From: an uncultured Gammaproteobacteria bacterium | Lineage (GTDB): Bacteria; Patescibacteriota; Microgenomatia; JAMCZE01 | Assembly: GCA_964641255.1 (NCBI GenBank) | Contig: CAZXMM010000001.1 | Location: 473,984-537,983, forward strand | Direction of reading: 5' to 3' | DNA length: 64,000 bases | Part shown: positions 1 to 24,348 of the stretch, in pieces | Layout: the number at the start of each line of letters is the position of its first letter | Position numbering within the stretch: the stretch's first letter is position 1 | Notes under the pieces: model-generated | What the model saw: only the letters and a program-made list of their open reading frames with translations | Told to the model about the DNA's origin: nothing | The model's database searches: none | Position numbers and translations under genes: made by a program

Positions 1-2
1 AT

Positions 3-521
3 TTGCCCAAGCCCTTAATTGTGTGTGTGGCTGCACTGGAGCCCGGCAAAAGAGTGGATCTCACCATTAAAGCGGTCAGTAGACTTAAAAAGGGGAGCCT
101 TCTCATTATGGGAGCTGGCGATGGGAAAAAAGCCTTGGAAGCGCTTGCCAGTGAACTGCTTCCCCATCGCTTTAAGATTATCCAAGTAACCCACGATGCA
201 ATCCCAGGTTATTATAATGCCGCCGATGTAGTGACTATGACCCCCCAGACTAGCGAGTCCTTCGGAATTGTCTATGTAGAAGCTATGGCCTGCAATAAAC
301 CCGTGGTGGCCACTAATGATCCCATTCGGAAGGAAATTATTGGGAAGGCAGGACTGCTGGTAGATCCGGAAAATACCCAGGAATATACAGCGGCTTTGGA
401 AAAAGCTTTGAGTAAAAGCTGGGGAGACATTCCGCGTAAACAAGCAGAAAAGTATTCCTGGGATACTATTGCTAATCAATATGAAGATCTTTTTGAGTCA
501 TTGTTAAAAAAGGAAAAATAA
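3..521 (+). CDS. Glycosyltransferase family 4 (GT-B fold), C-terminal fragment; 5' end lies outside the window
   Basis: C-terminal GT4 signature 'ESFGIVYVEAMACNKPVVATNDPIRKEII' (EX7E-like motif). The ORF is open to the window edge. Confidence 0.8.
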   Translation: MPKPLIVCVAALEPGKRVDLTIKAVSRLKKGSLLIMGAGDGKKALEALASELLPHRFKIIQVTHDAIPGYYNAADVVTMTPQTSESFGIVYVEAMACNKPVVATNDPIRKEIIGKAGLLVDPENTQEYTAALEKALSKSWGDIPRKQAEKYSWDTIANQYEDLFESLLKKEK

Positions 522-1711
522 TGGCAGATATTTTTACATCTATTATAAGATTCTTCCAAAAACAAACCACTCTTTTGTTCGTGGTGGTTATTGTTTTTCT
601 CACGGCACTGGTACTTACTATAGGGATTAATCGACCCTTTGTGGGACATCACGATGCTAATAATCGAATGTACCGCTTGGCGGCCCTCAACTATCTGAAA
701 CACGGTCTTATAGAAACAAAACTGGGGCAAGTGATTGCCCCTCCTACTGAAATAATGGCGATGGGACATTTCTACACTCATCACCCACCTCTACTATCCT
801 TGTTTTTAGCACTCTCCATTGGAATTTTTGGTGATACGTACTGGAGTGTGCGCTTAGTGCCTTTACTTTTTTCATCAATTACTGCTGGTGTGTTTTTTCT
901 GCTCCTTAGAAAATTTTTTTCCCTGGAATCATCATTGCTTGCAGTCGGATTTTGGCTAGCAAGCCCAATGTTTCTTTTCTTTGGAAAAATGGCCAACCAC
1001 GAGCCCTTGACTCTCCTCTTTCTTACTCTAGCGGTGTACGGGTGGGTGACTAAGAGAAAAAGACTACTCTATCTTGCCCTTTTCCTATGTCAGTGGACTG
1101 GGTGGCCAGCCTATTATCTAGCTGCCATCATTTTCATTTTTACACGGGATACTAAAGTAGTGCTTTTATCATTGATTGACGCTATTTTCTTTGTTGCCCA
1201 TACACTTCTTTTAACCGGTTCACCTACGGGTGGGGGACTAATGGAAATATTTCTTTTTAGAACCGGCCTGAGTCCTAAAGTGGGAAATGTGGTGGAAACA
1301 TATACGATGCAGAAATTTTTACACCAAGAAATATCCTGGCTTTACCACCTCTTTAATCCGGTGCTGGTATGGATAGCATCCCTCGGGGTTGTCTTAATCC
1401 TGAAAAGAAAAATTTTAGGAGAAAAGGAAAGAGTGGGGTTAACGTTCCTGCTTATTGCTACAATCCATATTTTCCTCTTCAGAACGGGTGCTAATAGACA
1501 TGATTACTGGCTCTATTATTATTTACCATTTTTGAGTTGGATGGTAGGCTATGTTTTCGCGTACTTTAGCGACCGGCGGCCATTGGTGAGAAGGGTCGTG
1601 GTCTATTTGGTTGGCGTACTACTGTTGGGGCTCGCCATCTTCCAAGGTCAACCATTCTTCTGGGCACTGCAAAATAGAATTGAAACTACTGAGTCTGGTC
1701 AACCACTTTAA
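521..1711 (+). CDS. Polytopic membrane protein, GT-C superfamily (PMT/ArnT-like, PMT_2-type)
   Basis: About 10 predicted TM helices. The N-terminal luminal loop has an acidic motif ('VGHHDANNRMY') and 'HHPPLL', as in the ArnT/PMT family. It sits in a glycosyltransferase cluster. Confidence 0.5.
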   Translation: MADIFTSIIRFFQKQTTLLFVVVIVFLTALVLTIGINRPFVGHHDANNRMYRLAALNYLKHGLIETKLGQVIAPPTEIMAMGHFYTHHPPLLSLFLALSIGIFGDTYWSVRLVPLLFSSITAGVFFLLLRKFFSLESSLLAVGFWLASPMFLFFGKMANHEPLTLLFLTLAVYGWVTKRKRLLYLALFLCQWTGWPAYYLAAIIFIFTRDTKVVLLSLIDAIFFVAHTLLLTGSPTGGGLMEIFLFRTGLSPKVGNVVETYTMQKFLHQEISWLYHLFNPVLVWIASLGVVLILKRKILGEKERVGLTFLLIATIHIFLFRTGANRHDYWLYYYLPFLSWMVGYVFAYFSDRRPLVRRVVVYLVGVLLLGLAIFQGQPFFWALQNRIETTESGQPL

Positions 1712-3140
1712 ATCTTTCGTACCACTCCACACTGGGGTTAGGAATTTTTTTATAGTATAGTTGCTTAGGTGTCACCGAAGTCATTATATAGTTTGGGTCC
1801 TGGTCTAGTCTTTCACTAAGCGTGATTACCGCCGCTTCATTCATAGGCCAAAAAGCATTGGGGTTTTGACCGTCACGCAGATCCAGAACAATAAGATCTG
1901 GCAGATATTTCCAATATTCTCCTCGCAGTAACATTAGTTTTTGTCGGTGAGTGAGATGAGCTCCCAAGCTATTTTGAGTCATGACAAAATTACTAGGCGG
2001 GAGACTGTCAAGAAACTTTCTTTCAAATTGCATAGTCTGGGTATGCTCATAAAAAGCAGAATTATATACCAGTGCTAGTGGCCCGTGGTAAAAAAATCGA
2101 TGTAAGACTATGACAACGGCGATAATGATTAGACCATGAAGCCAGATAACTTTTTGATACCACTTATATTTTGACAACCGTTCTACTCCTAGGATCGCTC
2201 CGAATGCTAGAAGCACACTCAAAATGGCATTATAGTGAAGGCCAAGATCCCATCTTGCAGCTCCAGAGTTAAGGACAAAGCGAGTAAATAAATCCTGAAG
2301 TATAGTGGGCAGAAAGGTTGTTGCAGATAGTGGCAGAAGTCCAAAGGTAAAGAAAGAGACTACTGTCATCTCTATTTTAATTGGGGGAGAGTAAAGCTGA
2401 GTAATCGTTGTTTCTAGTGTGTGGGAAACAGCACTGTATGGATAGGTATAACCCGCTATAGCTGGCATGACGAACTTAATGAGTGTGAAATAGTATAAAA
2501 ATGAAAACAGTAAGAGCAAGACTCCCCAAAGTAGTCTTTTTTCAAAGAACAAGTAAATACCTAGCCCCACTCCAATAGCTGCAAAATTTTCTTTTAAACC
2601 CATGGTTAAAAAAAGGAATGTAAAGAAAAAAGCGATCCTTTTCTTAATTAGGGAGAAAAGAGCTAAAGAGAGAAGCAGCATTGCAAACAAATCATTGTGA
2701 TAATTAGCGATGATGGCGTTTTGCGTACCAATATAGAAACAAAAAGCGAAGAGGAGGGCGAAAATCATCAGTTTATTTTTGATCTTTTCTTTTGCGATAA
2801 GAAAAAGCATAAAAGCACTAGCGGTGACAAATAAGTTTTCTGTTATGAGAAGTATCTCGTACTTGGAAGTAAAAAAATAAATCGGTGATAAAAGATACAT
2901 TACTGGGGAAAAATGGTCACCTAGCTGGTTAACTAGAGAGGGTCTGGTTAAATCTACCAAGGGGGCGTTACCATGGGCGACTTGCCAAAGAGCCGAGTCA
3001 AAGAAACCGTGATCCATGTAAAAAGCTTCAAACTGCCAAAATCTATTGAGTACAACTAGGTTGATAACTACGAAGTAAACCCCTAGAAAAAGGAGTATGT
3101 ACCACCATTGTTTAGTAAAAGTAATAAGTTTTGTTTTCAC
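1686..3140 (-). CDS. Integral membrane protein, DUF2079-like
   Basis: Multi-pass membrane protein. The N-terminal region 'FEAFYMDHGFFDSALWQVAHGNAPL' resembles the YDLGIFDQALW motif of DUF2079. It is convergent with the upstream gene, overlapping by 26 bp. Confidence 0.45.
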   Translation of the reverse strand: MKTKLITFTKQWWYILLFLGVYFVVINLVVLNRFWQFEAFYMDHGFFDSALWQVAHGNAPLVDLTRPSLVNQLGDHFSPVMYLLSPIYFFTSKYEILLITENLFVTASAFMLFLIAKEKIKNKLMIFALLFAFCFYIGTQNAIIANYHNDLFAMLLLSLALFSLIKKRIAFFFTFLFLTMGLKENFAAIGVGLGIYLFFEKRLLWGVLLLLFSFLYYFTLIKFVMPAIAGYTYPYSAVSHTLETTITQLYSPPIKIEMTVVSFFTFGLLPLSATTFLPTILQDLFTRFVLNSGAARWDLGLHYNAILSVLLAFGAILGVERLSKYKWYQKVIWLHGLIIIAVVIVLHRFFYHGPLALVYNSAFYEHTQTMQFERKFLDSLPPSNFVMTQNSLGAHLTHRQKLMLLRGEYWKYLPDLIVLDLRDGQNPNAFWPMNEAAVITLSERLDQDPNYIMTSVTPKQLYYKKIPNPSVEWYERFKVVDQTQ

Positions 3141-4801
3141 CTGAAATGCAGCCAGTTATTTATATCTTGATCAAACGACACCTTGGTTTCTTCCTCACTT
3201 AAATAAAATTGCTCCAGTTTGTAGCCATCTTTAAAGATTAGACTTTGTGATGGCTCTTTTTTTAATTGCAATGAATTTTGCAAAAAACCGCTCGGATCTG
3301 GTTGCCAGGGTAGATCGTACTCAGGTGGTCCTGCTAGCTCCACAAAAGTTTCTGGCAGTTTTTGGTACAAATGAACTTTTTTGTCAGGATGTAATTTTTG
3401 TTGAAAGACCACCGGATATTTGGACCGATACCCTTGAATATCCGGTGAGTAAAGAAAAAAACCAAAATCCTTGTTTCTTGCTTCCTCAAACGTTACTTTT
3501 GCTATCCGGTTGTGAAATTGCCAAGACATTTGCCGCTGGCCAATTTGTGACAGGTCAAAGACCAGTGTCATTGTTTGCCACTGGAGCTGGACGACTGTGA
3601 GAACTAAAACAACCACAATCATTAAGACACGGCTGAAGCTTTGTAAGGCGGCAACGAGAAATAAAAAGGCCACCGGAAAAAGAGGGAAGTAATAATAGAA
3701 GCCCCAACCACCCTGGTGAATAAGAGACAAAACATAGAAGCCAATGTAAAAATAGCCAAAGAAAAGTGACAGGTAGTCTTTTTTCAATGTAGCTCGAATG
3801 GTTAAGAGAGCTGCCCCAAGAAAAAGCCAAAAACTAAAATTATTCCACTCAGTTGGTAAAAAGAAAGTTCCAGAAGTTAGCATTGCCCCCGCACGGTCTG
3901 TGAGTTTGGCTACGAAACTTTGGTAGGCGGGGGCGTGGTGGCCACTTAGGTACAAGACCACAGCCCGGGATAAAGAGAAATTATGGCGGAGATCAAAAGC
4001 AATATAGCTAAGGAGGGGAGGAATAAAACCAACGAACCCTAGTGGGCTATAAGCGGGAAGGCGCTTCCTGAGGGTAAGTGTACCAATGAGCAAGAATGAT
4101 AGAACAAGTAACGGTGCTCCTACTGCAATCTGAAATTGAAAGATTAGCCCACCAATAAAAGCGTGTAGTAGCAAAAACTTTAATTCTTTTGTCTTAAGAA
4201 ATAATAAGAGTGTGCCTAAAAATATTGGCATGCAGATAAGAGCGCCACTCGGGTTAAAAAAAGCTCTAGTGAAGCTGACCATTTGCACACTGATAAGCAG
4301 TGTGACCAGATAGCTAGCGGTGGTTCCTAGAAACTTTTTCCCCAGCCAAAAGGTCGTTCCAATCTGAAAAATACTCAAGAGTACCCAGAACCAGCCAACA
4401 GCAATTGGGTCTCCTTGCCCAAGGAAAAAAGCGGGAAAGTTGAGATAGGACCATAGAGGCCCGTGGAAAAATCCTGGCGCTGCTCCAGATCTGGGACCAA
4501 TGAGAATAAAGCCTTTATCTTGAATTTCTTGAAGAAGAAGAAAGTCGCGAGCAATATCAGCGTCATACATAATATCGCCGGAAGCAACATATAATGCGGA
4601 GGCAATAATTGACCCAATGATGGGTAAACTAAGAAGAAAATTGCGGATGTTAAGACCGTCTGGCCAGTATTTCAAATTGAAATCAAAGGTAATTAAGCTT
4701 ACTATGAAGGAATAATCTCTATGACTAAACTTAGTGTGATTATACCAGTTTATAACGAGGCGGAAGTTATTACCAACTGCCTTGACAGCTTGTATAAGCA
4801 A
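3137..4801 (-). CDS. GT-C membrane glycosyltransferase (ArnT/PMT-like), 554 aa; start codon uncertain
   Basis: Many TM helices plus a C-terminal soluble domain. The annotated N-terminus overlaps the divergent GT2 start by 81 bp. An internal TTG (L43, 4673-4675) is an alternative start. Confidence 0.5.
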   Translation of the reverse strand: MLIQAVKAVGNNFRLVINWYNHTKFSHRDYSFIVSLITFDFNLKYWPDGLNIRNFLLSLPIIGSIIASALYVASGDIMYDADIARDFLLLQEIQDKGFILIGPRSGAAPGFFHGPLWSYLNFPAFFLGQGDPIAVGWFWVLLSIFQIGTTFWLGKKFLGTTASYLVTLLISVQMVSFTRAFFNPSGALICMPIFLGTLLLFLKTKELKFLLLHAFIGGLIFQFQIAVGAPLLVLSFLLIGTLTLRKRLPAYSPLGFVGFIPPLLSYIAFDLRHNFSLSRAVVLYLSGHHAPAYQSFVAKLTDRAGAMLTSGTFFLPTEWNNFSFWLFLGAALLTIRATLKKDYLSLFFGYFYIGFYVLSLIHQGGWGFYYYFPLFPVAFLFLVAALQSFSRVLMIVVVLVLTVVQLQWQTMTLVFDLSQIGQRQMSWQFHNRIAKVTFEEARNKDFGFFLYSPDIQGYRSKYPVVFQQKLHPDKKVHLYQKLPETFVELAGPPEYDLPWQPDPSGFLQNSLQLKKEPSQSLIFKDGYKLEQFYLSEEETKVSFDQDINNWLHFR

Positions 4802-5566
4802 ACCCTAGCTGATCAGATGGAAGTGATCGTTGTTGATGATGGATCAACAGATAGTACAAAGTTAAAAATTAAGAGCCCAAAGTTTAAAGAGCTCGTATTT
4901 CTTGAGCAGCAGCACGAAGGACCTGGGGCAGCCAGAAATCTGGGTGCCAGCAAAGCTAAGGGAGAGATTCTTGTTTTTGTTGATGCGGATATGGAATTCG
5001 CCCCCGATTTTTTAGAAAAACTTATTGCCCCGATTGGCAAAAATGGAGTTATTGGCACTTTTTCTAAAGAGGAATTTCTTTTGAATAAAGATTCTGCGTT
5101 AGCTCGGTGTTGGAACCTCAACCTAGGTCGGCAAGCCAATCGAATGCATCCGGACAATTACCCTAATACCCAAAATGTTTTCCGTGCTATTTTGAAAGCG
5201 AAATTTAATGAAGCTCAAGGTTTTGAAACAACTATTGGTTACACCGATGACTGGTCACTGTCTCGCAAGCTAAAAACCCTTGCTGTTGTTGCTCCTGGTG
5301 CAATCTATTTCCATGCTAACCCCCACAAATGGTTAGAGATTTGGCAGCAGGCCCGCTGGTTTGGGAAAAACGAATTTCTTACCGGTAGTTTTGTTAGAAA
5401 ACTTTACAATTTGTATCGGTATTTACCGTTCCTTTCCATGATTAAAGGCATCTATGGTGCGATAAAATATCAAGAGCCACAGTTCGTTGCTTTTAAGATT
5501 GTTTACGATACTGGAGTATTTATCAGTGTGCTATTTTCCTTTTTAGGTGAACAGAAAGCAAAATAA
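4721..5566 (+). CDS. Glycosyltransferase family 2
   Basis: 'LSVIIPVYNEAEVI...VIVVDDGSTDST...FVDADMEF' is the canonical GT2 N-terminal DXD region. Confidence 0.8.
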   Translation: MTKLSVIIPVYNEAEVITNCLDSLYKQTLADQMEVIVVDDGSTDSTKLKIKSPKFKELVFLEQQHEGPGAARNLGASKAKGEILVFVDADMEFAPDFLEKLIAPIGKNGVIGTFSKEEFLLNKDSALARCWNLNLGRQANRMHPDNYPNTQNVFRAILKAKFNEAQGFETTIGYTDDWSLSRKLKTLAVVAPGAIYFHANPHKWLEIWQQARWFGKNEFLTGSFVRKLYNLYRYLPFLSMIKGIYGAIKYQEPQFVAFKIVYDTGVFISVLFSFLGEQKAK

Positions 5567-6863
5567 TATGATTTTTTTGGTGGGGATTTTGGCACTATTT
5601 TTGCGATTGCTTCAATTGAATCAATCGCTTTGGCTTGATGAGGCCATCACTGCTGTCGCTCTTAGGAATCTAACACTTTGGGAACTTATCACCCGTTTCG
5701 CTCCGGGAGATTTCCATCCGCCACTTTATTATATTGTCCTTAAACTTTGGACCAATGTTTTTGGCTACAGCGAGGTGAGTTTGCGATTTCCGTCAGTGAT
5801 TTTTTCAGTACTGACGGTTTTTGCAGTCTATGTTATGGGCAAAACGCTGTGGAACAAAAGGGCAGGATTAATTGCTGCTTTTCTATGGGCAATCAATCCC
5901 TTAGCCCTCTATTACGGCCAAGAGGCGAGAATGTATTCACTGGAAACCCTTCTTGTTAGTCTTTCAATCCTCGCTTTTATTCAAAAGAAAAACCTTTCTT
6001 TCATTATTTTCTTCACCCTTGCCCTGTATACGGATTATCTTCCGGGCCTTTTGATTCCTGTGTTTCTAATTGCCACAAGAGAGAAGAAAAAGGAAATTCT
6101 TTCTCGCATTGGGGTAATTATGTTGTGTTTTGCGCCTTGGCTGCCTGTTTTGGGTAACCAACTACTCACGGCTCAACAGTCCCTTAGTAATTCACCTCTC
6201 TGGGCCAGTGTTCTTGGTAGTTTTGAACTCAAGGCTTTGCCCCTGACATTTACTAAATTCATTATTGGGCGAATCACCATTGATAATAAATATCTTTATG
6301 GGGGCACCATGGTGGTTCTGGGAGGACTCCACGCCTTTATTTTGTCTCACTCCCGAAGTCGTCTTGTATGGCTATGGCTGGTGGTTCCCGTTATTTTGGG
6401 CCTAATAGTGTCAATTAAGATTCCGATCTATTCGTACTTTCGTTTCCTCTTTGTTTTACCAGCCTTTAGTCTTCTTCTCACTGATGGCGTGCGAAAATCA
6501 AAAATACTTTTTTTGAGCGTTTTTCTTGTTAGCCTTGTTTCTTGTGGAGTTCTTTTGACGAAACCTCGCTTTCAAAGAGAAGATTGGAAAACCGCCGCAG
6601 CTTTCATTAATAGTCAAAGTGGCGAAGTCTTAATGCCAAGCACGGCACAAGCCGCTCCATTATATTATTACAATGTGGGTTGGCCAGTTAGAGACGATAC
6701 TCGGCCACCTAATAACCCAAGGGTCTATTTACTAAGGTATGTCCAAGAAATTTTTGATCCAATGGATAAATTGCGAGGTGCCTTAGAAATGGGTGGCTAT
6801 CAAAAAGTGAGCGAACATAATTTTAATGGAGTAATTATTTGGGTGTACGAAACAATTAATTAG
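5547..6863 (+). CDS. GT-C glycosyltransferase, PMT_2/ArnT family (polyprenyl-phosphate-sugar dependent)
   Basis: 'LWLDEAITAVALRNL...FAPGDFHPPLYYIVLKLW' contains the DEx and hPPL motifs typical of the ArnT/PMT N-terminus. The protein is polytopic. Confidence 0.75.
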   Translation: MNRKQNNMIFLVGILALFLRLLQLNQSLWLDEAITAVALRNLTLWELITRFAPGDFHPPLYYIVLKLWTNVFGYSEVSLRFPSVIFSVLTVFAVYVMGKTLWNKRAGLIAAFLWAINPLALYYGQEARMYSLETLLVSLSILAFIQKKNLSFIIFFTLALYTDYLPGLLIPVFLIATREKKKEILSRIGVIMLCFAPWLPVLGNQLLTAQQSLSNSPLWASVLGSFELKALPLTFTKFIIGRITIDNKYLYGGTMVVLGGLHAFILSHSRSRLVWLWLVVPVILGLIVSIKIPIYSYFRFLFVLPAFSLLLTDGVRKSKILFLSVFLVSLVSCGVLLTKPRFQREDWKTAAAFINSQSGEVLMPSTAQAAPLYYYNVGWPVRDDTRPPNNPRVYLLRYVQEIFDPMDKLRGALEMGGYQKVSEHNFNGVIIWVYETIN

Positions 6864-6929
6864 GGACAATTTACCAAGCCTGCTTTTAATTTTTTTACAA
6901 CTTAACCTTTACGGTATTTTTATATTTGT

Positions 6930-8177: not shown

Positions 8178-8186
8178 TTAAATAAA

Positions 8187-13694: not shown

Positions 13695-13695
13695 T

Positions 13696-14292: not shown

Positions 14293-14299
14293 TCTAGAG

Positions 14300-17200: not shown

Positions 17201-17434
17201 ACCGCCTTTTTGTACCAAACCGAGCGGAAGGGCTGGCCGATCATTGAAGGAACGATTCAGGACATGGTGGCAAAAGGGGCCGATTACTATGTTAGTGTTA
17301 ACTATGACGATCCTACCAAGGCCCTTATGCAGGAGGCCCTGGGTAACAATAATGTTCATGAGTATAAAATCTTAGTCACCGAGCCAGAGTATGTGATTAT
17401 CCAGCTAGTTCCCGACCGCTTACTACCAAAATAG
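14300..17434 (+). CDS. Fusion membrane protein: N-terminal O-antigen ligase/polymerase-like (Wzy_C-type) domain plus C-terminal GT-C (PMT_2/ArnT-like) domain
   Basis: The N-terminal half has about 12 TM helices, a large Pro-rich external loop and the O-antigen-ligase signature 'STDNGFLRSLGETGLLGFLAY'. The C-terminal half has 'PFGIFYGRSILPDPTMVTFSLGAQWAMSRYLE..LLVKPFAIFLLLPIAYLWW', typical of PMT_2. The probable start is the ATG at 14300 (MKKILTF), not the upstream GTG at 14231. Ends with a TAG stop. Confidence 0.6.
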   Translation: MKKILTFIDTNILAILAGCLLAFIPLYPKIPLFDILPGYIVRVRAEDFLVGFSILVFLSQILRKRVKLEKNVPTVGLLSYLAIGLLSVIVAVLVVQTVPMELKHVGKTLLHWMRRIEYFSLFFIVFGSIKSLRTAKVLVWIFFIVLLLITLYGYGQKYFAYPYFPAFSTMNREFSKGWVLYLTQNARVLSTFGGHYDLAGYLVIALSLGWSFFFGAKRRLVKVAFGLIILAAFWLLILTASRASFLGYLAAVVAVCFIWMFKRDFMWALSRCLAVICLSILLMLSFGDLSDRFLHLLHLEERVTGLREIVLRPMSAPPPGQTLLENNSIAAVTSKTDMPPTPADKYFDEVKKQSLPADVNKDAPPLMIPTKTASGSTVMVEKTRTYSQNAVLFDLSTGIRFDSTWPRAIEGFKASPLFGSGYATLTKSTKYEFSEAESTDNGFLRSLGETGLLGFLAYFGTLIAMVVVVIKSLGGIKDTFIYSLAAAFVAFTMGLLVNAVMLDIFEASKVAYVYFGMAGLTMGTIYLFKKKITEDYEPLKINFAILPFLKWLWRFVRSDFFLLGIVVVCSFQLRTYRLSEPLADWHSWRQADTSAVTRDFDRNGRIDWLYPTFEDLSSIPSGLPNPRGLRMVEFPIYNAASVTVKKIFKELSVEEAGRVTTNLMWSGSVIFLFLLTRRYLSRRIAYCVAISMAVIPFGIFYGRSILPDPTMVTFSLGAQWAMSRYLEKKKIASLFLSLVFAAVALLVKPFAIFLLLPIAYLWWVANRFNLKKWLVLAVFFGIAAAPMLWWRHWISQFPEGIPASDWLFNGDSIRFKGAFFYWLFADRIGRLILGHWGLILLGFGLIRNYEGKARFYSLVLFLSSLLWLCVFATGNVRHDYYQILLMPSLALLVGGGVELLLFSKIAGLNTYLSKGLGTVAFVFMCAFGWYFVKDFFNVNHPELALAGKAVREVANDRSLVVAPYSGDTAFLYQTERKGWPIIEGTIQDMVAKGADYYVSVNYDDPTKALMQEALGNNNVHEYKILVTEPEYVIIQLVPDRLLPK

Positions 17435-17445
17435 TTCATTCCTCT

Positions 17446-18651
17446 ATGAAGATACTTCTTTTGACTCTGTATTTGCCCTACCCTCCGAATTCAGGGGGCC
17501 AGATTAGGTCCTACAACCTCATTAAGCATCTGTCCAAAAAGCACCAAATTACTTTGGTCTCGCTTATTAAAAAGGGCGAGGAGAAATATGCCGGTGAGAT
17601 GGAAAAGTATTGTGAGAAAGTCGTCTACTTTTACCGCCCCGAGAAGCCCTGGACGCTTCCCAACATTCTTAAAACCGGCCTTAGTCTTTATCCCTTCGTG
17701 GTGATGCGCAACTACACTCCGGAAGTGAAGAAGTTTTTGGAAAACGAGCTGAAGCAAGTCGCTTATGATCTAATCCATGTAGAAACCTTTTACTTAATGC
17801 CCCATATCCCGCCAACAGTGACCCCAATTCTACTTGTTGACCAAACGATCGAGTTTGAAGTCTATCGTCACTACGTTGATACTTATCGTTTTTGGTTGTT
17901 ACGTCCGCTGCTTTATATTGATGTTCTTAAACTGAAGTTTTGGGAAACCAAACTCTGGAAAGAAGCCAAAATGGTGGGAGCGGTTTCTGAAGCCGACAAA
18001 AAGAAGATTTTAGAATTAGCTCCCAATGTTAAAGTAGGCATTATTCCTAACGCTCCCGGAGAGGACCTCTCTAATTTGTATGCTAAGCGCCACCCCGACT
18101 TTAAAAAACCGATTGTTTTTTACCAGAGCAACTTTCATTGGATGCAAAACATTGAAGGGGCCAACATTTTGGCCAACGAAGTTTTTCCAAAAGTAAAAAA
18201 ACAGATTCCGGAAGCGGTGTGTATGATAGCTGGACAAAATACTCAAGGAAAAGTAGACCACTTGGCTAGAGAAGATGTCTATATCGTTCCGATGGCTACC
18301 TCAGATATTGAAGGGGTGGTTAATGCCTACAAGCAAGGCACCATCTTTCTGGCCCCCCTAAGGGGACCAGGGGGGACGAGGCTTAAGATTCTTGGGGCAA
18401 TGACGGCCGGTGTTCCAGTCGTTACTACCTCAGTAGGGGCCCAAGGGTTAGATGTTGAAAGTGGAAAAAATATTATGATTGCTGATGATGCCAGGGGACT
18501 GGCTGATGCGGTAGTAAAACTCTTAAAGGATAAAAAACTGTATGATCAAATAGTAAAAAATGCTAAGGCTCTCGTAGAAAAAAATTATGATTGGGGAGCC
18601 ATATCTAAAAATTTAGAAAAGATTTATGAAGAAACCATTGAAAAAAGATAG
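17446..18651 (+). CDS. Glycosyltransferase family 4
   Basis: 'GGTRLKILGAMTAGVPVVTTSVGAQGLDVESGKN'. Confidence 0.8.
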   Translation: MKILLLTLYLPYPPNSGGQIRSYNLIKHLSKKHQITLVSLIKKGEEKYAGEMEKYCEKVVYFYRPEKPWTLPNILKTGLSLYPFVVMRNYTPEVKKFLENELKQVAYDLIHVETFYLMPHIPPTVTPILLVDQTIEFEVYRHYVDTYRFWLLRPLLYIDVLKLKFWETKLWKEAKMVGAVSEADKKKILELAPNVKVGIIPNAPGEDLSNLYAKRHPDFKKPIVFYQSNFHWMQNIEGANILANEVFPKVKKQIPEAVCMIAGQNTQGKVDHLAREDVYIVPMATSDIEGVVNAYKQGTIFLAPLRGPGGTRLKILGAMTAGVPVVTTSVGAQGLDVESGKNIMIADDARGLADAVVKLLKDKKLYDQIVKNAKALVEKNYDWGAISKNLEKIYEETIEKR

Positions 18652-19543
18652 CACTGGGAGTAAGACTAAACTCTCAATTGTGATCCTAAATCACAATACC
18701 TCAAAGCTTCTTAGCGAGTGTCTTGCTTCAATTCCCACCGCTTTAACACATGAAATTATTGTCGTTGATAATGCGAGTACTGACGATTCGGTCGCTATGC
18801 TTAAAAAGCAGTTTCCGACTGTCAAAGTAATAGAAAACAGTGACAATGTGGGTTATACCCGGGGCAATAATGCGGCGAAGGACTATGCCTTAGGAAAGTA
18901 TGTCCTATTTCTTAATTCAGATACTACAGTTGAGAAAAACACTCTTTCGGTAATGACAGAATTTATGGAGGAGCACCCTGATTGCGGGGCCTCCACTTGT
19001 TTGACCCTCTTGCCTACTGGCAAACTCTATTATGCTTGCCATCGCGGCTTCCCCACTCCCTGGAATTCTCTTTGCTACTTTAGTGGGCTGGCTAAACTAT
19101 TTCCTTGGAGTAAGTTTTTTGCCGGGTATACAGCCACCTATCTTCCGCTTACTACCGTTCATGAAATTGATGCTTGCTCGGGAACCTTTCTTCTCATTAG
19201 AAAAACGCTTCTTGATGAGATAGGTTGGTTTGATGAAGACTATTTCGCTTACGGCGAAGATATTGAAATGTGTTTCCAAGTAAAAGCTCGGGGGTTTAAA
19301 GTCATGTTTAACCCCCACGTAAAAATTACTCATTATTGGGGAGCGACCAGTGGCCTAAAAAGTACCTCAGCGCATCTAGCGGTGGCCAATGCTGAAATAA
19401 AAAAGAAATGGAATAGAGCCCGGTATCAGGCAATGAAGATCTTTTACGACAAGCACTACCGAAAAAATTATCCCGAATTTGTTCGCTGGCTGATCTTTCT
19501 CGGCATTAGGGCGACCATGTATCTGCGCCAAGGTCAGGACTAA
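18626..19543 (+). CDS. Glycosyltransferase family 2
   Basis: 'LSIVILNHNTSKLLSECLASI..IIVVDNASTDDS..FLNSDT'. Confidence 0.8.
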   Translation: MKKPLKKDSTGSKTKLSIVILNHNTSKLLSECLASIPTALTHEIIVVDNASTDDSVAMLKKQFPTVKVIENSDNVGYTRGNNAAKDYALGKYVLFLNSDTTVEKNTLSVMTEFMEEHPDCGASTCLTLLPTGKLYYACHRGFPTPWNSLCYFSGLAKLFPWSKFFAGYTATYLPLTTVHEIDACSGTFLLIRKTLLDEIGWFDEDYFAYGEDIEMCFQVKARGFKVMFNPHVKITHYWGATSGLKSTSAHLAVANAEIKKKWNRARYQAMKIFYDKHYRKNYPEFVRWLIFLGIRATMYLRQGQD

Positions 19544-19547
19544 AACT

Positions 19548-20654
19548 ATGAAGATTATCATTGACGCCAGATTTTGGGGGCCCAGTCACACTGGCCTAGG
19601 AGTCTATACCAGAGAGCTCGTGACGGCCCTTAGCAGGGTTTATGATAAAAACTCGTATATTCTTTTTATTCGGCGCGAGATGGAAAAGGAGATAATTCTC
19701 CCCGCAAACTTTACTTTACAAGTTGTTGAGGCCAAACCTTATACTTTTGCCGAGCAGCTACTACTAGCTTGGTACCTGTTTCGTTTCCGGCCCGATTTGG
19801 TACATTTTCCCAGTATTAATGTTCCCTTGCTGTTTTTTGGCCGCTACGTGGTTACGGTTCATGACATTATTAAGCACAATTTTCGAGGCAGAGACAGTAC
19901 TACCCTTCCCGAGATAACATACTGGCTTAAATATGGTGTTTACCGCTTAGCAGAGTGGTTAGTAGTAGCTAGAGCCAGTCGCGTTATCGTTCCCTCTTTT
20001 GCCGTCGCAGCTGAAGTAGAGCGGGTCTATCCTTTGGCAAAGGACAAAACGAGTGTAACTTTGGAAGCAGCAGTGCTAAGTAGTAAAGGAGACACTAGTG
20101 CTAAAGTAGATTTAAATCTTCCCAGGAAATTCGCGGTTTATACCGGCAATGCTTATCCGCATAAGAATCTTACTAAATTGGTTATTGCTTGGAAGGAAGT
20201 ATATAAAAATACAGGGATGGAGCTTGTTATTTCTTCTGGCAGGTCGGTTTTTAGTAACCGGATTGAACAGCTAATCCAGACAAATGGTGCCAAAGACTAT
20301 ATTCATTTTAAAGGCTACTTATCAGATGAGGAGTTAAAAACCGTTTATAGTCGGGCAAATTTATATGTATTTCCTTCCCTTATGGAGGGGTTTGGTATTC
20401 CAGCGCTTGATGCCATGAATTTTAATCTCCCCGTGGTGTGTTCGGACATTGCTGTGTTCAGAGAAGTGTACGGGGCAGCAGCCAGTTATTTTGATCCCCG
20501 GGATGTACAAGCAATCGCTAAGGCCGTAACTTGGGTCGAAAACCATCCGGGAGTGAAGCAGAAACTTAAGCTGGCGGGTAAAAAACAGGTGGCATTGTAT
20601 TCCTGGAAAAAAACAGCAGAGCAAACACTGGCTGTCTATAATAAGGCCCTATGA
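19548..20654 (+). CDS. Glycosyltransferase family 4
   Basis: 'LMEGFGIPALDAMNFNLPVVCSDIAVFREVYG'. Confidence 0.8.
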   Translation: MKIIIDARFWGPSHTGLGVYTRELVTALSRVYDKNSYILFIRREMEKEIILPANFTLQVVEAKPYTFAEQLLLAWYLFRFRPDLVHFPSINVPLLFFGRYVVTVHDIIKHNFRGRDSTTLPEITYWLKYGVYRLAEWLVVARASRVIVPSFAVAAEVERVYPLAKDKTSVTLEAAVLSSKGDTSAKVDLNLPRKFAVYTGNAYPHKNLTKLVIAWKEVYKNTGMELVISSGRSVFSNRIEQLIQTNGAKDYIHFKGYLSDEELKTVYSRANLYVFPSLMEGFGIPALDAMNFNLPVVCSDIAVFREVYGAAASYFDPRDVQAIAKAVTWVENHPGVKQKLKLAGKKQVALYSWKKTAEQTLAVYNKAL

Positions 20655-21739
20655 AGGTAGCACTTGTTTATGACCGGGTCAATAAATGGGGTGGGGCGGA
20701 ACGGGTACTGTTGGCTCTTCATGAGCTTTTTCCTGACGCCCCCTTGTACACCTCTGTCTACGACTCCCAAAAAGCACCCTGGGCCAGTGTTTTTTCAGTT
20801 AAAACCTCCTTTTTACAGCATCTTCCTCTTCCTAAAGATCATCATGAACTTTATCCATTTCTAATGGGGCCGGCTTTTGAAGCGTTTAATTTTGATGAAT
20901 TTGATTTGGTTATTTCGGTCACTTCCGAGTATGCCAAAGCGGTTATCACTAAGCCCAAAACAAAGCATATTTGCCTTTGTCTCACACCAACGGGCTATTT
21001 GTGGTCCAATTACGATAGTTATTTTTCTTCAAAGAGCCAGTGGTTTAAATGGCTTAGTACGCCGCTTGTTAAATGGTTGCGCTTTTACGACAGGATCATT
21101 GCTCAGCGGCCTGACTCTTATATCGCTATCTCAGAAATCGTAAAAGAGCGCATCGAGACTTATTACAAGCGAAGTAGCACAGTTATCTACCCCTTTCTGG
21201 AGTTTAAAGAATTTGTTAAAAGCCAGCAAAAACCGGAAAATTTTTATTTACTTGTGTCTAGACTGGTGCCTAACAAGAGATTAGATGTGGCAATTACCGC
21301 GTTTAACCAGTTAGGGTGGCCACTAAAAATTGTAGGAGTAGGCGGTGAGATGGGTAGGCTCAAAAAACTAGCCAAAGCTAATATTGAATTTGTGGGTTAT
21401 TTGACAGACACGAAGTTAGCAAGCTACTATAGACGCACCAAAGCTCTTATTGTTCCTGGGGCCGAGGATTTTGGCTTAGTGGCTCTTGAGGCTCAATCGT
21501 TTGGCAAGCCGGTGATAGCTCTTGCCAAGGGTGGGGTTTTAGAGACGGTAATTGCTGATAAAACCGGGGTGCTTTACGAAGACCAAACGGTAGTTGGCTT
21601 ACTAGAGGCGTTAAAAAGATTTGAGTCGCTTACCTTTGATCCCAAGGACTGTCAAAAGCAGGCTAAGAGGTTTTCCAAAGAAAAATTTAACCGGGCAGTG
21701 CTTGCCTATATCGACAAAGTATGGTGTACAGTTTCTTAA
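20651..21739 (+). CDS. Glycosyltransferase family 4
   Basis: N-terminal 'MKVALVYDRVNKWGGAERVL' and C-terminal 'DFGLVALEAQSFGKPVIALAKGGVLETV'. Confidence 0.75.
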   Translation: MKVALVYDRVNKWGGAERVLLALHELFPDAPLYTSVYDSQKAPWASVFSVKTSFLQHLPLPKDHHELYPFLMGPAFEAFNFDEFDLVISVTSEYAKAVITKPKTKHICLCLTPTGYLWSNYDSYFSSKSQWFKWLSTPLVKWLRFYDRIIAQRPDSYIAISEIVKERIETYYKRSSTVIYPFLEFKEFVKSQQKPENFYLLVSRLVPNKRLDVAITAFNQLGWPLKIVGVGGEMGRLKKLAKANIEFVGYLTDTKLASYYRRTKALIVPGAEDFGLVALEAQSFGKPVIALAKGGVLETVIADKTGVLYEDQTVVGLLEALKRFESLTFDPKDCQKQAKRFSKEKFNRAVLAYIDKVWCTVS

Positions 21740-22371
21740 AAAGATCTTTAGATGTATGCAGTGCCGTTGGAATTGCCCTAATATTTTCTCCTCTTTTGTT
21801 TCTCATTTCGATTGCTATTAAATTTGATTCTCCTGGTCCGGTAATTTTTAAACATCGACGTATTGGGCTGAATGGAAAAATTTTTTACTTGTGGAAATTC
21901 CGTTCGATGGTAGAGAACGCAAATACTAAGGATTTTGCCAACAACAAAGCCTTTATCAGCAAGTTTAAGAAAAAAGAGGGTTGGAAACTGCAAGCCAGTG
22001 AAGATCCGAGGATAACCCGGGTGGGTCGGTTCATTAGGAAATACAGCTTTGACGAACTTCCTAATCTGTGGAATATCTTTATTGGGGATATGAGCATTGT
22101 AGGTCCTAGAGCGTACCGTCGAGATAGTTTCGGGGATGAGGTAGAGGAACAGTTAAAGCTTTATCCCGACCGTCCGGATTTGCGAGAGAAACTAAAGATT
22201 GCCTGGTCGGTTAAGCCCGGTCTTACTGGGCCATGGCAAACGTCTGGTCGTAATAAACTGTCTTGGGATAAGCGGGTGGAATTAGACGCGGCTTATGCTC
22301 AGTCAAAGTCAATTCTTGGAGATATTAGCTATATTCTCAAAACGCCATTTGTGATGTTAAATAAATGGTAA
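21721..22371 (+). CDS. Polyprenyl-phosphate sugar-1-phosphate transferase (bacterial sugar transferase family, WbaP/WcaJ-like C-terminal domain)
   Basis: 'DSPGPVIFKHRRIGLNGKIFYLWKFRSM...DELPNLWNIFIGDMSIVGPRA' is the canonical PF02397 motif set. This is the initiating enzyme for Und-PP-linked glycans. Confidence 0.85.
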   Translation: MVYSFLKRSLDVCSAVGIALIFSPLLFLISIAIKFDSPGPVIFKHRRIGLNGKIFYLWKFRSMVENANTKDFANNKAFISKFKKKEGWKLQASEDPRITRVGRFIRKYSFDELPNLWNIFIGDMSIVGPRAYRRDSFGDEVEEQLKLYPDRPDLREKLKIAWSVKPGLTGPWQTSGRNKLSWDKRVELDAAYAQSKSILGDISYILKTPFVMLNKW

Positions 22372-22395
22372 AGATGTTAAGATTGTCTCTGCCCT

Positions 22396-24348
22396 ATGGA
22401 CGAAACAATTGAAAAATTAGATTTATCTTCCCCGACTGCTGTAACTACTGAGGAAGAAACAGTAGTCCCTTCCTACCCTAAGTCTCGGCGTTCATTTAAA
22501 AAGCCGCTACTTATTTTGGGGGTAGTTTTACTGGTACTCCTACTAATTGGTGGGATACTTGGGTTACTGCTTGGTGTTCCTTTATCAAAAACTTATGCTG
22601 ATACCCAAAAAACTATCGCTTCCGCTCGAGAAATAAACACTGCTCTAAAGAGCCAAGATATTAAAAAAACCAGCGAGGCTATTAGTAAAACCCAAAGCTT
22701 AGTGAAAGTGGTCCAAGCTGACCTCAGAGCCATTGGTTGGGCAAAATCTCTCCCGGTGGTTGGCCCCTACATCGCCGATGGTGAACATGGGGCAACAGCC
22801 GCATTACACGGATTGCGGGCTGCTTCGATTATGACCCAAGCGGTCGAGCCCTATGCTGACCTATTGGGACTCGAGGGACAAGGGACTTATGTGGGAGGAA
22901 CGGCTGAAGATCGACTAGCTAAGATGGTAGAAACTTTCGACAAAGTTACTCCCCAGATAGATCAGGTGGCGGTAGAAATTGAGGCAGTTAAAAAGGAGCT
23001 GGCCTTCATTGACCCCAATCGTTATCCAGAGGAGTTCCGGGGTCGCTTAGTTCGTTCTCAGATAGTGGAAGCTAAAAATATTGTTACTGGAGTAGATGAG
23101 ATTTTAACCCAAGCTAGGCCACTAGTTAAGCATATGCCGGCCCTGTTAGGGTCAAAAGGAGAGGCCAAATACATGATTCTTTTCCAAAATGATAAAGAGT
23201 TGCGCCCAACCGGAGGTTTTATTACTGCTTATGCGGTCTTTAGAATTGAAAAAGGCAAGATTGCCCTTGATGCCGCTGACGATATCTACAAACTTGATGA
23301 CACTGTAGGAAAAAAAGTTGCTCCGCCTGACCCGATTGCTAAATATCTTAACGTCTTTTCTTGGAGATTGAGAGATTCAAATTTTTCGCCAGATTTTTAC
23401 AATTCCATGAAAGCATTCGAGGATATTTATGCTTCCTCTAGTCAAAAAAAGAAACTTGATGGGATTTTAGCTGTGGATACTCATTTGTTGGTCCGGATGA
23501 TGGACGTGCTGGGGCCAATTAAAGTTTACGACACCGAGTTTAATACTAAAATCGTCCCTCAGTGTAATTGTCCAATGGTGGTCTACGAACTCTTAAAGCA
23601 AGCTGGTACACCACGCGGTTACTGGGTTGATAATCGTAAAGACATGATTGGTCAACTGTTATCGGCGATGATGAAAAAAGCTCTTGCTACCCCCAAACAA
23701 GTCTATGCACCTCTGTTTCAAGCGGCAATCGAAGAAGCCACCCAAAAGCACCTCCTTATCTATTTGCATAACGAAGATGCTGAAAAGGGTATTGAAGTGC
23801 TAAACTTTGCTGGCAGGATCAAGACTAATCCAGGTGGAGACTATCTTCACATTAACGATGCAAACTTAGGGGGGGCCAAATCAAATCTCTATGTCACTCA
23901 AGCTGTAACTGATAAGGTGATGATTCATGACGGTGGAGCAGACGTTGAGTTAACGATTGATTATAAATTCCCCCACGGTGCGGATAATTGTTCTCTCGAG
24001 CGCAAAGAGGGACTCTGTCTTGCCGGTATTTACCGTGACTACCTGCGTGTTTACCTACCGCTTGGAGCCAGTGTTAAAGAGGTTAAGGGGTTTGAAAATA
24101 AAAGTACCACCTTTGAAGATTTGGGCCACACCGTGGTTGACGGCTTCTTTACAGTTGTTCCCCAAGGGTTAGCGCAAATCAAGATTAAGTATACGGTAAA
24201 GGGAGACTTTAAGAAAAATGGCGAGTATAAACTGATGATTCAAAAACAACCCGGGACTGTAGGTAATCTTTACAAGTTAAGTGTTGACGGCAAAGACCAA
24301 CAACCCTTTAATCTTACGGAAGATAAGGAAATCGTTATCAAGCTGTGA
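22396..24348 (+). CDS. Membrane-anchored exported protein, DUF4012-like
   Basis: An N-terminal TM helix then a roughly 580-aa extracytoplasmic domain. 'MILFQNDKELRPTGGFITAYAVF' resembles the conserved DUF4012 core. This family typically neighbours polysaccharide gene clusters. Confidence 0.45.
   Translation: MDETIEKLDLSSPTAVTTEEETVVPSYPKSRRSFKKPLLILGVVLLVLLLIGGILGLLLGVPLSKTYADTQKTIASAREINTALKSQDIKKTSEAISKTQSLVKVVQADLRAIGWAKSLPVVGPYIADGEHGATAALHGLRAASIMTQAVEPYADLLGLEGQGTYVGGTAEDRLAKMVETFDKVTPQIDQVAVEIEAVKKELAFIDPNRYPEEFRGRLVRSQIVEAKNIVTGVDEILTQARPLVKHMPALLGSKGEAKYMILFQNDKELRPTGGFITAYAVFRIEKGKIALDAADDIYKLDDTVGKKVAPPDPIAKYLNVFSWRLRDSNFSPDFYNSMKAFEDIYASSSQKKKLDGILAVDTHLLVRMMDVLGPIKVYDTEFNTKIVPQCNCPMVVYELLKQAGTPRGYWVDNRKDMIGQLLSAMMKKALATPKQVYAPLFQAAIEEATQKHLLIYLHNEDAEKGIEVLNFAGRIKTNPGGDYLHINDANLGGAKSNLYVTQAVTDKVMIHDGGADVELTIDYKFPHGADNCSLERKEGLCLAGIYRDYLRVYLPLGASVKEVKGFENKSTTFEDLGHTVVDGFFTVVPQGLAQIKIKYTVKGDFKKNGEYKLMIQKQPGTVGNLYKLSVDGKDQQPFNLTEDKEIVIKL

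Follow-up and report, generated by a model that had tools for sequence, protein, structure and literature searches.

Why does one short stretch of a bacterial genome of about 1 Mb carry so many membrane glycosyltransferases side by side, and what might they build together? The question was raised by a DNA stretch of 64,000 nucleotides (contig CAZXMM010000001.1, positions 473,984 to 537,983; this whole stretch is called the window), the first 24,348 positions of which had been described in an earlier note, made from the letters alone, as a surface-glycan locus dominated by polytopic glycosyltransferases of the GT-C class. Here we analyzed this locus by profile searches, predicted structures and comparison of gene order. 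It forms the downstream 24 kb of an island for the synthesis of a cell-surface glycan which spans at least 34 kb, and it holds eight polytopic GT-C-type proteins carrying nine modules. The most likely product, to which we give somewhat better than even credence, is a wall or surface glycan of the Wzx/Wzy type which is elaborated outside the membrane by GT-C enzymes using lipid-phosphate sugar.

GT-C proteins of the locus

The profile searches that the earlier note had proposed put four proteins above the gathering score of PMT_2 (PF13231; 26.1 bits), and they assigned one protein to DUF2079 and one module to Wzy_C. The note had claimed at least six GT-C-type membrane proteins and eight are now supported, so that its general description of a locus rich in GT-C-fold membrane glycosyltransferases is borne out by Pfam, fold and profile evidence. 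First-loop acidic motifs were seen in single sequences of the PMT_2 proteins, for example HHD...HHPPL in 521-1711 and WLDE...FHPPLYY in 5547-6863, and the latter protein also gave weak NCBIfam matches to mannosyltransferase, Agl23 and archaeal STT3 models. The ArnT equivalog of NCBIfam was matched by none of the membrane proteins of the locus, and the Pfam models PMT (PF02366), MIR and PMT_4TMC had no match among the locus proteins. The DUF2079 protein at 1686-3140 is probably a member of the GT-C clan; the main ground is that DUF2079 presumably belongs to the GT-C clan of Pfam, and a profile of four DUF2079 sequences was aligned by hhalign with the family of 11393-12541 (77%, E 2e-5).

Three membrane proteins, at 3137-4801, 6930-8177 and 11393-12541, had no Pfam match even at E ≤ 10 and none in NCBIfam. 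The earlier note had listed the first as a GT-C protein and the other two as probable ones, and all three could be placed, the first two by a predicted GT-C fold and the third as GT-C-like by transitive homology. The AlphaFold2 model of the 3137-4801 protein has a mean predicted local distance difference test (pLDDT) score of 93.8, and in the Foldseek search against PDB its top 28 matches are all GT-C proteins, the best being ArnT (5f15, E 2.4e-5, TM-score 0.60); further matches are STT3/PglB/AglB, ALG9, Emb and AftA, and transporters appear only at E >0.7 with negligible probability. The model of the 6930-8177 protein (pLDDT 92.5) matches AglB (7.7e-4) and then ArnT, PglB, ALG3, Pmt1, EmbC, PimE and AftD, and each of the two models has at least 11 long helices. 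ArnT, PglB and Pmt1, with which the earlier note had suggested a structural comparison, are thus all among the matches. Transporter identity was considered and rejected, Foldseek probabilities of 0.97-1.0 being given exclusively to GT-C enzymes in the two modelled proteins; every match with a probability >0.9 was a GT-C enzyme, and the placement in transporter families which the earlier note had named as telling against its view was not seen.

The conservation within these families was examined next to the models. The 3137-4801 protein has 76 homologues, of which all named ones are of CPR (Candidate Phyla Radiation)/Microgenomates type and 14 carry a precomputed PMT_2 match; R36 and D37 are invariant in its first-loop motif DIARDF...IGPRSG...FHGPLW, and D33 is conserved in at least 90%. 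The ATG at 4570 taken by the gene caller would delete the first transmembrane helix (TM1) of this protein; a start at TTG 4675 is the better fit, also to the homologues. For the 6930-8177 protein 39 homologues were obtained, from CPR and Anaerolineae, with D61 of the first loop conserved in at least 90%. The 11393-12541 protein has four close homologues, the profile of which reaches 7114 proteins in a library of 1.84 billion proteins; sampled relatives matched PMT_2 (8 of 52) and DUF2079 (2 of 52), and D43 is invariant in the family. Its profile was aligned with that of the 3137 family (hhalign 96.2%, E 2.4e-9) over a span that includes the first-loop Asp and TM2-6. The profiles of the 3137 and 6930 families gave no significant hhalign alignment, their common fold being seen by structure only, and PDB sequence searches with the large protein at 14300-17434, with the profile of its Wzy_C module and with the 11393-family profile returned noise only. 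A conserved acidic residue in the first extracytoplasmic loop, a feature of the GT-C(A)-type fold, is present in each of the three families by these alignments. We regard the three proteins as members of new, divergent GT-C families outside the coverage of Pfam and NCBIfam.

The membrane proteins had been called paralogues in the earlier note, and this word is too strong. An all-against-all comparison by BLASTP and phmmer detected a sole pair, 521-1711 and 5547-6863 (27% identity over 143 amino acids, E 4e-11), and on this ground the idea that the set arose by recent gene duplication was rejected. The GT-C proteins are anciently separated families brought together in one locus. Their clustering is not a matter of chance, because the remaining 40 kb of the window has no PMT_2/DUF2079-type gene and carries recO, aminoacyl-tRNA synthetases and the dcw cluster instead.

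The Wzy_C and PMT_2 fusion

The largest protein of the locus (14300-17434) joins two modules, an N-terminal polymerase/ligase-type GT-C(B) module (Wzy_C, 2.4e-12, 47.3 bits) and a C-terminal GT-C(A) module (PMT_2, 9.9e-16, 58.8 bits). The gene starts at ATG 14300 and the same protein is present in independent assemblies; a TTG further upstream (14231) was tried as the start and an exact-sequence look-up found nothing for it. Relatives of the N module were surveyed in 80 metagenomic loci at 38-59% identity, of which 73 were informative. The two modules are fused in 10 of the 80 loci (the closest relatives, with open reading frames (ORFs) of 1002-1058 amino acids) and in 61 the Wzy_C gene is directly followed by a gene for the PMT_2 module; in seven loci the contig ends too early to judge, and two have no PMT_2 module. 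Fused or adjacent modules were accordingly counted in 71 of the 73 informative loci.

Some Levybacteria-type genomes have the Wzy_C module joined to another polytopic C-terminal half, unlike the PMT_2 module of the window (loci L066, L082 and L041 of Table 1), and a weak PTPS_related match was seen in this half in L082 only. It amounts to a second and independent type of fusion beside that of Wzy_C with PMT_2. Because the pairing is obligate and the fusions are independent, the Wzy_C and PMT_2 modules are considered to work together, and the pair probably acts as one machine. No description of such a pair or fusion was found in the literature examined.

The Wzy_C model (PF04932) spans polymerases, ligases and O-oligosaccharyltransferases (O-OTases), so that a match to it does not separate them. 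The invariant residues of the N module are R242 (in the motif T-A/S-S-R), R292, R400 and D440-N441 in TDNxFLRSLGETGLLG. R242 was compared with R215 of Escherichia coli WaaL by hhalign, which aligned the R215 region only, at 20% probability, and in an alignment made by eye D440-N441 falls opposite WaaL H338-N-EIIEAGSLKGLMG; we take R215 and H338 to be critical WaaL residues. Meitil et al. (PMC10920833) describe an acidic residue at the position of the ligase His for the polymerase families and for SEDS proteins, both of clan GT-C1. The manual alignment therefore gives a hint that the chemistry of the N module is closer to that of a polymerase than to that of a ligase.

Conserved core and variable arm

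Gene order was compared by using the window proteins as queries against the ORFs of 80 loci from genomes and 80 from metagenomes. A collinear core recurs in dozens of metagenomic loci, in the order GT4 (8187-like), GT4 (12543-like), acetyltransferase, an extra GT2 in most relatives, Wzy_C module, PMT_2 module, GT4 (17446-like), GT2 (18626-like), GT4 (19548-like) and GT4 (20651-like), and it corresponds to positions 12543-21739 plus 8187-9317 of the window. The GT-C-rich arm (window 1-12541 and the region upstream) is not conserved among relatives. The nearest homologue of the 3137-4801 protein (47% identity, locus L004) sits among unrelated genes, and several Daviesbacteria-type loci have a 5547-like gene and two to three tandem 3137-like genes upstream of the same core. 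We describe the locus as bipartite, with a conserved core operon which probably makes a lineage-wide backbone and a variable GT-C-rich arm which probably diversifies it.

The density of GT-C genes was surveyed in 34 related loci of Microgenomates, each 20 kb or longer, which were chosen for having one such gene and for which the counts are a lower bound. Per 21.5 kb, three or more GT-C-like ORFs were counted in 16 of these loci and five or more in 8 of them; the window has eight proteins with nine modules in 24 kb, which puts it at the upper end of the surveyed range and still inside it. Dense GT-C arrays are thus common in Microgenomates. The named homologues and related loci come from Roizman-, Levy-, Davies-, Beckwith-, Gottesman-, Curtiss- and Woesebacteria. 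Judged from these names, and not from a phylogeny of marker genes, the host is probably a Patescibacteria member of the Microgenomates type with a small genome. Many of the related third-party annotation records of metagenome-assembled genomes (L004-L083) are titled 'uncultured Gammaproteobacteria/Pseudomonadales bacterium' yet carry the Microgenomates-type gene, and they look mislabelled.

Extent and gene content of the island

The 20 genes of window 1-24348 are densely packed (Table 1), 18 of them on the plus strand and two, 1686-3140 and 3137-4801, on the minus strand, and the ORFs were found where the earlier note had placed them. Stops and starts of many neighbouring genes overlap by 4-8 bp, intergenic gaps are at most 70 nt, and the G+C content (GC) runs from 0.40 to 0.46 with no break. 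The downstream boundary is clean, with recO at 24345-24887, after which come a gene for a class II aminoacyl-tRNA synthetase and the whole dcw cluster.

At its other end the locus does not stop at the edge of the window. Locus L003, identical to the window in the overlap, extends 9.5 kb 5′ of window position 1 and there carries, in this order, genes for a GT11-type transferase, an FkbM-like methyltransferase, a GT2, a 391-amino-acid PP-loop protein, a polysaccharide pyruvyl transferase, DUF2142, a MOP/Wzx flippase, a GT2, a methyltransferase and the GT4 whose C-terminus opens the window. Exact-protein matches to the window were found in Logan contigs of run SRR14932608 and in an NCBI contig of 950,062 bp, of which the island of at least 34 kb makes up about 3.5%, its upstream end lying beyond the L003 sequence. 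The PP-loop protein (L003 2338-3513, about 6-7 kb upstream of the window) is soluble, has the SGGxDS ATP-pyrophosphatase motif (as GFSGGVDS) and no Pfam or NCBIfam match, and it may be a modifier of the sugar amidotransferase type.

Table 1. Features of the glycan island and of related loci (window coordinates unless a locus is named; E, E-value; aa, amino acids; AF2, AlphaFold2).
Feature	Coordinates	Strand	Evidence and remarks
GT4, C-terminal 172 aa, cut by window start	3..521	+	Glycos_transf_1 E 2.9e-28
GT-C (PMT_2) polytopic glycosyltransferase, 396 aa	521..1711	+	PMT_2 E 2e-10, 41.6 bits; at least 6 hydrophobic segments
DUF2079 polytopic membrane protein, 484 aa	1686..3140	-	DUF2079 E 1.8e-35
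Predicted GT-C-fold glycosyltransferase	3137..4675 (ORF to 4801)	-	AF2 and Foldseek; probable TTG start 4675
GT2, 281 aa, one C-terminal hydrophobic segment	4721..5566	+	Glycos_transf_2 E 8.6e-32; best NCBIfam EpsD-like
GT-C (PMT_2) polytopic glycosyltransferase	5547..6863	+	PMT_2 E 1.3e-14, 55.1 bits; gene-caller start 5568
Predicted GT-C-fold glycosyltransferase, 414 aa	6930..8177	+	AF2 and Foldseek
GT4 (conserved core)	8187..9317	+	Glycos_transf_1 E 1.4e-30
Soluble GT2, 230 aa, candidate polyprenyl-phosphate sugar synthase (ArnC/DPM1/PpgS-like)	9314..10006	+	NCBIfam below cutoffs
GT-C (PMT_2) polytopic glycosyltransferase, 465 aa	10003..11400	+	PMT_2 E 7.6e-9, 36.4 bits; about 9 hydrophobic segments
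GT-C-like polytopic protein, 382 aa	11393..12541	+	Profile links to PMT_2 relatives
GT4 (conserved core)	12543..13694	+	Glycos_transf_1 E 9.1e-32
Hexapeptide-repeat WcaF-like O-acetyltransferase (conserved core)	13696..14292	+	Hexapep E 5.4e-14; WcaF family 6.6e-27
Fusion, 1044 aa: N module Wzy_C (aa 1 to ~540), C module PMT_2 (aa ~555-1010)	14300..17434	+	
GT4 (conserved core)	17446..18651	+	Glyco_trans_1_4 E 1.5e-19
GT2 (conserved core)	18626..19543	+	Glycos_transf_2 E 4.9e-22
GT4 (conserved core)	19548..20654	+	Glycos_transf_1 E 1.2e-27
GT4 (conserved core)	20651..21739	+	Glycos_transf_1 E 2.3e-26
Small monotopic phosphoglycosyltransferase (Bac_transf; WbaP C-domain/PglC-like)	21721..22371	+	PF02397 E 1.5e-57; TIGR03025 2.1e-69
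DUF4012 protein, 650 aa	22396..24348	+	PF13196 E 5.7e-25; transmembrane helix aa 38-56, bulk predicted outside
DUF2142 polytopic protein	upstream of window (L003)		E 1.3e-16
MOP/Wzx flippase	L003 6169-7386, ~2.1-3.3 kb upstream of window position 1		PF01943; MOP flippase match 1.6e-8
Full-length GT4 cut by window start, 359 aa	L003 8922-10001		
Alternative Wzy_C fusion, ORF ~1015 aa	L066 15857-18913		C-half ~480 aa; separate PMT_2 gene next
Alternative Wzy_C fusion, ORF ~1015 aa	L082 13885-16920		C-half ~480 aa; separate PMT_2 gene next
Alternative Wzy_C fusion	L041 11114-13420		Shorter C-half; ORF reaches locus end

Pfam and NCBIfam scans of the locus gave six GT4 and three GT2 genes. Five GT4 had been reported earlier; the three GT2 (4721-5566, 9314-10006 and 18626-19543) agree with the donor synthase and two further enzymes listed there, and the acetyltransferase of the LbH type, the DUF2079-like protein and the DUF4012-like protein were each matched by Pfam. 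The initiating enzyme had been read as a PNPT-type sugar-phosphotransferase and has to be renamed, since the 21721-22371 protein has PF02397 over its full domain, no other Pfam match and one N-terminal hydrophobic helix, and PF00953 is matched only by MraY (39382-40395). Its public gene call covers 154 amino acids, and the Bac_transf domain requires the 216-amino-acid ORF from ATG 21721. The DUF4012 family of the last gene is enriched in CPR and Gram-positive bacteria and is present in a Bifidobacterium capsular/exopolysaccharide cluster (PMC6744442); Meheust et al. merely noted it as an envelope-related CPR/Gram-positive family (PMC6744442).

The donor synthase of the Dpm1/GtrB type proposed earlier at 9314-10006 is supported as a candidate. 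Among the GT2 proteins of the locus it is the only one that aligns over its full catalytic domain to polyprenyl-phosphate sugar synthases, with NCBIfam matches to ArnC (7.3e-20, positions 5-223 of 316), PpgS (1.1e-11, 4-193 of 226), a Dol-P-hexose transferase and AglJ, and it is without the C-terminal transmembrane helices of GtrB/ArnC. The gene overlaps the PMT_2 gene at 10003-11400 by 4 bp and belongs to a translationally coupled series of GT4, ArnC-like GT2, PMT_2 and the 11393 GT-C gene, with overlaps of 4-8 bp at 9314, 10003 and 11393. Of 80 related GT-C loci, 17 have a 9314-like gene no more than 10 kb away.

Proposed pathway and alternatives

A lipid-linked polysaccharide or oligosaccharide is suggested because the large gene is a fusion of Wzy_C and PMT_2 and the locus has the parts of a Wzx/Wzy pathway, with the initiating phosphoglycosyltransferase, the Wzx flippase (outside the window) and, as candidate polymerase, the Wzy_C module. 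The earlier note had proposed a protein- or wall-glycosylation machinery; the GT-C glycan machinery stands, and the fusion together with the Wzx/Wzy parts favours a lipid-linked poly- or oligosaccharide at least as much as protein mannosylation of the PMT style.

The pathway may be pictured as follows. The phosphoglycosyltransferase at 21721-22371 would prime polyprenyl phosphate, on which the cytoplasmic GT4 and GT2 enzymes would assemble a lipid-diphosphate-linked oligosaccharide, to be modified by the WcaF-like acetyltransferase and the upstream pyruvyl-, methyl- and GT11-type enzymes. The upstream MOP/Wzx flippase would carry it to the outer face, where the Wzy_C module of 14300-17434 would polymerise or transfer it. 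In parallel, the ArnC/DPM1-like GT2 at 9314-10006 would load polyprenyl phosphate with a single sugar, and this lipid-phosphate sugar, once flipped, could supply as many as eight GT-C(A)-type enzymes (the four PMT_2 modules, the divergent 3137, 6930 and 11393 families, and DUF2079) plus the upstream DUF2142, each of which might add its own residue or linkage outside the membrane.

Several points weigh against this pathway. The candidate synthase at 9314-10006 is below every NCBIfam equivalog cutoff (e.g. 71 against 529 bits), and no GtrA, SMR or MATE flippase for the lipid-phosphate sugar was found in 1-24348 or elsewhere in the window; the one MOP-family flippase seen would have to serve one or both lipid intermediates. 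Neither a chain-length regulator (Wzz/PCP) nor an LCP ligase or nucleotide-sugar synthesis gene was found in the locus. The GT-C status of DUF2079 and DUF2142 is weakly supported, single-sequence hhalign of the two proteins against GT-C profiles giving 50% and 19%, and the numbers of strong hydrophobic segments (6-9 per membrane protein and 17 in the fusion) were counted by a crude hydropathy scan and not by a topology predictor. Lastly, a protein acceptor, either a pilin or an S-layer protein, fits almost as well as a polymer acceptor.

The strongest alternative starts from this last point, and we hold it to be possible, at distinctly lower probability than the polysaccharide pathway. Here the system would be one of protein O-glycosylation, in which the Wzy_C module is an O-OTase of the PglL/PilO/WsaB type acting on pilins, S-layer or other surface proteins, and the PMT_2 enzymes mannosylate or extend glycans on secreted proteins in the manner of actinobacterial Pmt. 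The N module matches PF04932, a family in which O-OTases are included, and the locus has PMT_2 matches; the 5547-6863 protein is weakly like archaeal STT3, Agl23 and mannosyltransferase, the best fold match of 6930-8177 is the archaeal oligosaccharyltransferase AglB, and type IV pili and surface proteins that depend on sortase abound in CPR bacteria (PMC6744442). However, no PMT (PF02366), MIR, PMT_4TMC or STT3 domain occurs in the locus proteins, the best fold match of 3137-4801 is ArnT, an enzyme with a lipid acceptor, and the N module has an invariant Asp at the WaaL His position by eye, as in the polymerase families (PMC10920833). About ten cytoplasmic glycosyltransferases with pyruvyl, acetyl and methyl modification suit a repeat-unit polysaccharide better, and no pilin or S-layer gene adjoins the locus.

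A mosaic of independent glycan systems placed side by side appears improbable to us. The core would then make one product, the GT-C proteins of the arm would act on other targets (lipoglycans, glycolipids or peptidoglycan-linked polymers), and the donors would come from elsewhere. The tight packing, the overlapping stops and starts and the even GC (0.40-0.46) speak against such a mosaic, as do the position of the sole candidate lipid-phosphate-sugar synthase within the arm, where it is translationally coupled to two GT-C genes, and the 5547-like and 3137-like genes which immediately precede the same core in several Daviesbacteria-type loci. It is favoured by the different conservation patterns of core and arm, by the opposite strand of 1686-3140 and 3137-4801, by the many unrelated contexts and tandem arrays in which 3137 homologues are found, and by the high divergence of the GT-C families from each other.

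That the polytopic proteins are transporters or non-enzymatic membrane proteins with a spurious GT-C likeness, as the lack of Pfam and NCBIfam matches in three of them could suggest, is effectively refuted by the four proteins above the PMT_2 gathering score, by the conserved first-loop Asp/Glu motifs and by the Foldseek results, in which transporters, GPCRs and aquaporins appear only at E >0.1, probability ≤0.2 and TM-score <0.2.

Returning to the Wzx/Wzy-type glycan, a bolder form of it can be put forward as a speculation which we think is rather unlikely to hold in full. The Wzy_C and PMT_2 pair would be a two-module machine that joins a lipid-diphosphate-glycan polymerase/ligase with a lipid-phosphate-sugar glycosyltransferase and builds a Microgenomates-wide wall glycopolymer outside the membrane, and the variable arm of at least six divergent GT-C proteins would give a strain-specific diversity of surface glycans that governs host attachment and phage recognition in these small-genome bacteria of epibiotic life.

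Other genes of the window

The remaining part of the window was also inspected. The complete dcw cluster (27705-45484) comprises mraZ, mraW, a 112-amino-acid ORF, ftsI, Mur ligases, murB (minus strand), murA, mraY, ftsW, murG, ftsA and ftsZ, and has inside it a Cu-oxidase_4/YfiH-type gene (32298-33065) and a glutamate-racemase-like gene (33062-33832); one of its Mur ligases (MurC-like, 35180-36913) has a C-terminal NUDIX domain. Two ORFs that flank the cluster had no significant Pfam match, namely 27028-27600 (190 amino acids), which precedes mraZ, and 45835-47244 (469 amino acids), which sits after ftsZ and a 114-amino-acid ORF. Two SEDS genes are present, FtsW in the dcw cluster (40308-41459) and a RodA-like gene after the isoleucyl-tRNA synthetase IleRS (50315-51388); as SEDS proteins are GT-C(B) in the Alexander-Locher scheme, the whole window has 11 GT-C-class modules.

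Near the end of the window a 922-amino-acid protein (54884-57652, minus strand) combines BNR/Sortilin-Vps10-type repeats with an LCAT/PGAP1-like alpha/beta-hydrolase (lipase/acyltransferase) domain, and it may be a secreted lipid-acting enzyme. It is followed by a second, smaller glycan-type set (57713-62618) of GT2 (57713-58477), FkbM methyltransferase (58479-59351, minus strand), GT4 (59354-60502), methyltransferase (60456-61259) and two GT2 (61234-61971 and 61968-62618). This set lies where the GC of the window is lowest (0.35-0.38, compared with about 0.44), and for this reason it may have been acquired horizontally.

Value of the findings

The envelope chemistry of CPR/Patescibacteria is essentially uncharacterised, and the host-attached life of these bacteria makes their surface important. 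At least 3.5% of a genome of about 1 Mb is devoted to one glycan island rich in outer-face glycosyltransferases, and this outlay implies that the organism depends to an important degree on an elaborate surface glycan. The findings provide three handles for the researchers, that is a core operon which can be traced across Microgenomates, a Wzy_C/PMT_2 pair for which the gene fusion suggests a physical complex, and three GT-C families outside Pfam from which new CAZy families could be founded.

The earlier note had stated that nothing comparable is characterised in such bacteria, and this is consistent with the literature searched, as absence of evidence and not as proof. Literature searches on CPR with GT-C and on DUF2079 with glycosyltransferase gave no results, and a 2024 perspective on Patescibacteria biology does not mention glycans.

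Comparison with known systems

No new mechanism is proposed, as the class of every part is already known (GT-C(A), GT-C(B)/Wzy_C, phosphoglycosyltransferase, GT2, GT4 and Wzx). New, beside the three divergent GT-C families, are the Wzy_C and PMT_2 pair and the recurrence in Microgenomates of a bipartite organisation rich in GT-C genes.

At the level of single proteins, the nearest systems are ArnT (GT83) and the WaaL/Wzy/PglL group (GT121, clan GT-C1; PMC10920833). ArnT is the best structural match of 3137-4801, four locus proteins pass PMT_2, and an acidic motif of the first loop with an (H/F)xPPL-like element after it is common to all of them; however, the identity is only 12-13%, there is no arn operon partner except the ArnC-like GT2, and lipid A, the acceptor of ArnT, is not expected in a CPR bacterium. 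The N module passes Wzy_C, has a long external loop and carries the Arg of (L)T(A/S)SR, weakly aligned to WaaL R215, and it differs from WaaL by an invariant Asp at the position of the catalytic His338 in the by-eye alignment. It differs also from the bimodular WadA (GT121+GT25) in being paired with a PMT_2 GT-C module.

In the three-component extracytoplasmic systems, such as GtrA/GtrB/Gtr* of Shigella and Salmonella, CsdAB/CflA of Lactococcus and the GT136 pentofuranose system of Citrobacter (PMC11127046, PMC9746298), a GT-C enzyme is served by a synthase. As in these systems, a synthase-related GT2 lies beside GT-C enzymes in a locus that would also make a lipid-diphosphate-linked glycan by a Wzx/Wzy-type route. 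They have one GT-C protein per synthase, whereas 8-9 GT-C-type proteins per candidate synthase are found here, with no GtrA/SMR/MATE gene in the locus and no protein reaching the cutoff of a characterised equivalog.

The rhamnose-polysaccharide loci (cwps/rgp) of Lactococcus and Streptococcus, with the WpsI polymerase, the WpsJ GT-C and DUF2142 proteins (PMC9746298, PMC12599335), resemble the island in their conserved backbone region and variable side-chain region, and also in having a Wzx-like flippase, a Wzy-type polymerase (for which the Wzy_C module is the island's candidate), a DUF2142 protein and polytopic GT-C proteins proposed for attaching or decorating the polymer. Unlike them, the island shows no rhamnose-synthesis or ABC-transporter genes, its polymerase/ligase-type module is fused to a PMT_2 GT-C module, and it has far more GT-C proteins.

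The assembly of arabinogalactan and lipoarabinomannan in mycobacteria and corynebacteria (EmbA/B/C, AftA-D, PimE, Mpt) would be alike in that one or two lipid-phosphate sugar donors serve many different GT-C enzymes, which form or branch a wall glycan on the outside of the membrane, and Emb, Aft and PimE structures are among the Foldseek matches reported here. The proteins of the island have no sequence membership in GT53, GT85, GT87 or GT89 and no carbohydrate-binding C-terminal domains of Emb/AftD size, DPPR synthase and DprE genes are absent, and the genes are gathered into a single island although the genome measures only about 1 Mb. A scheme of one synthase and many GT-C enzymes would also resemble the periplasmic side-chain glycosylation of O antigens and of Gram-positive wall polysaccharides. 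By analogy, it is the mycobacterial assembly of arabinan and mannan that comes closest to the ratio of many GT-C enzymes per donor synthase suggested for this island.

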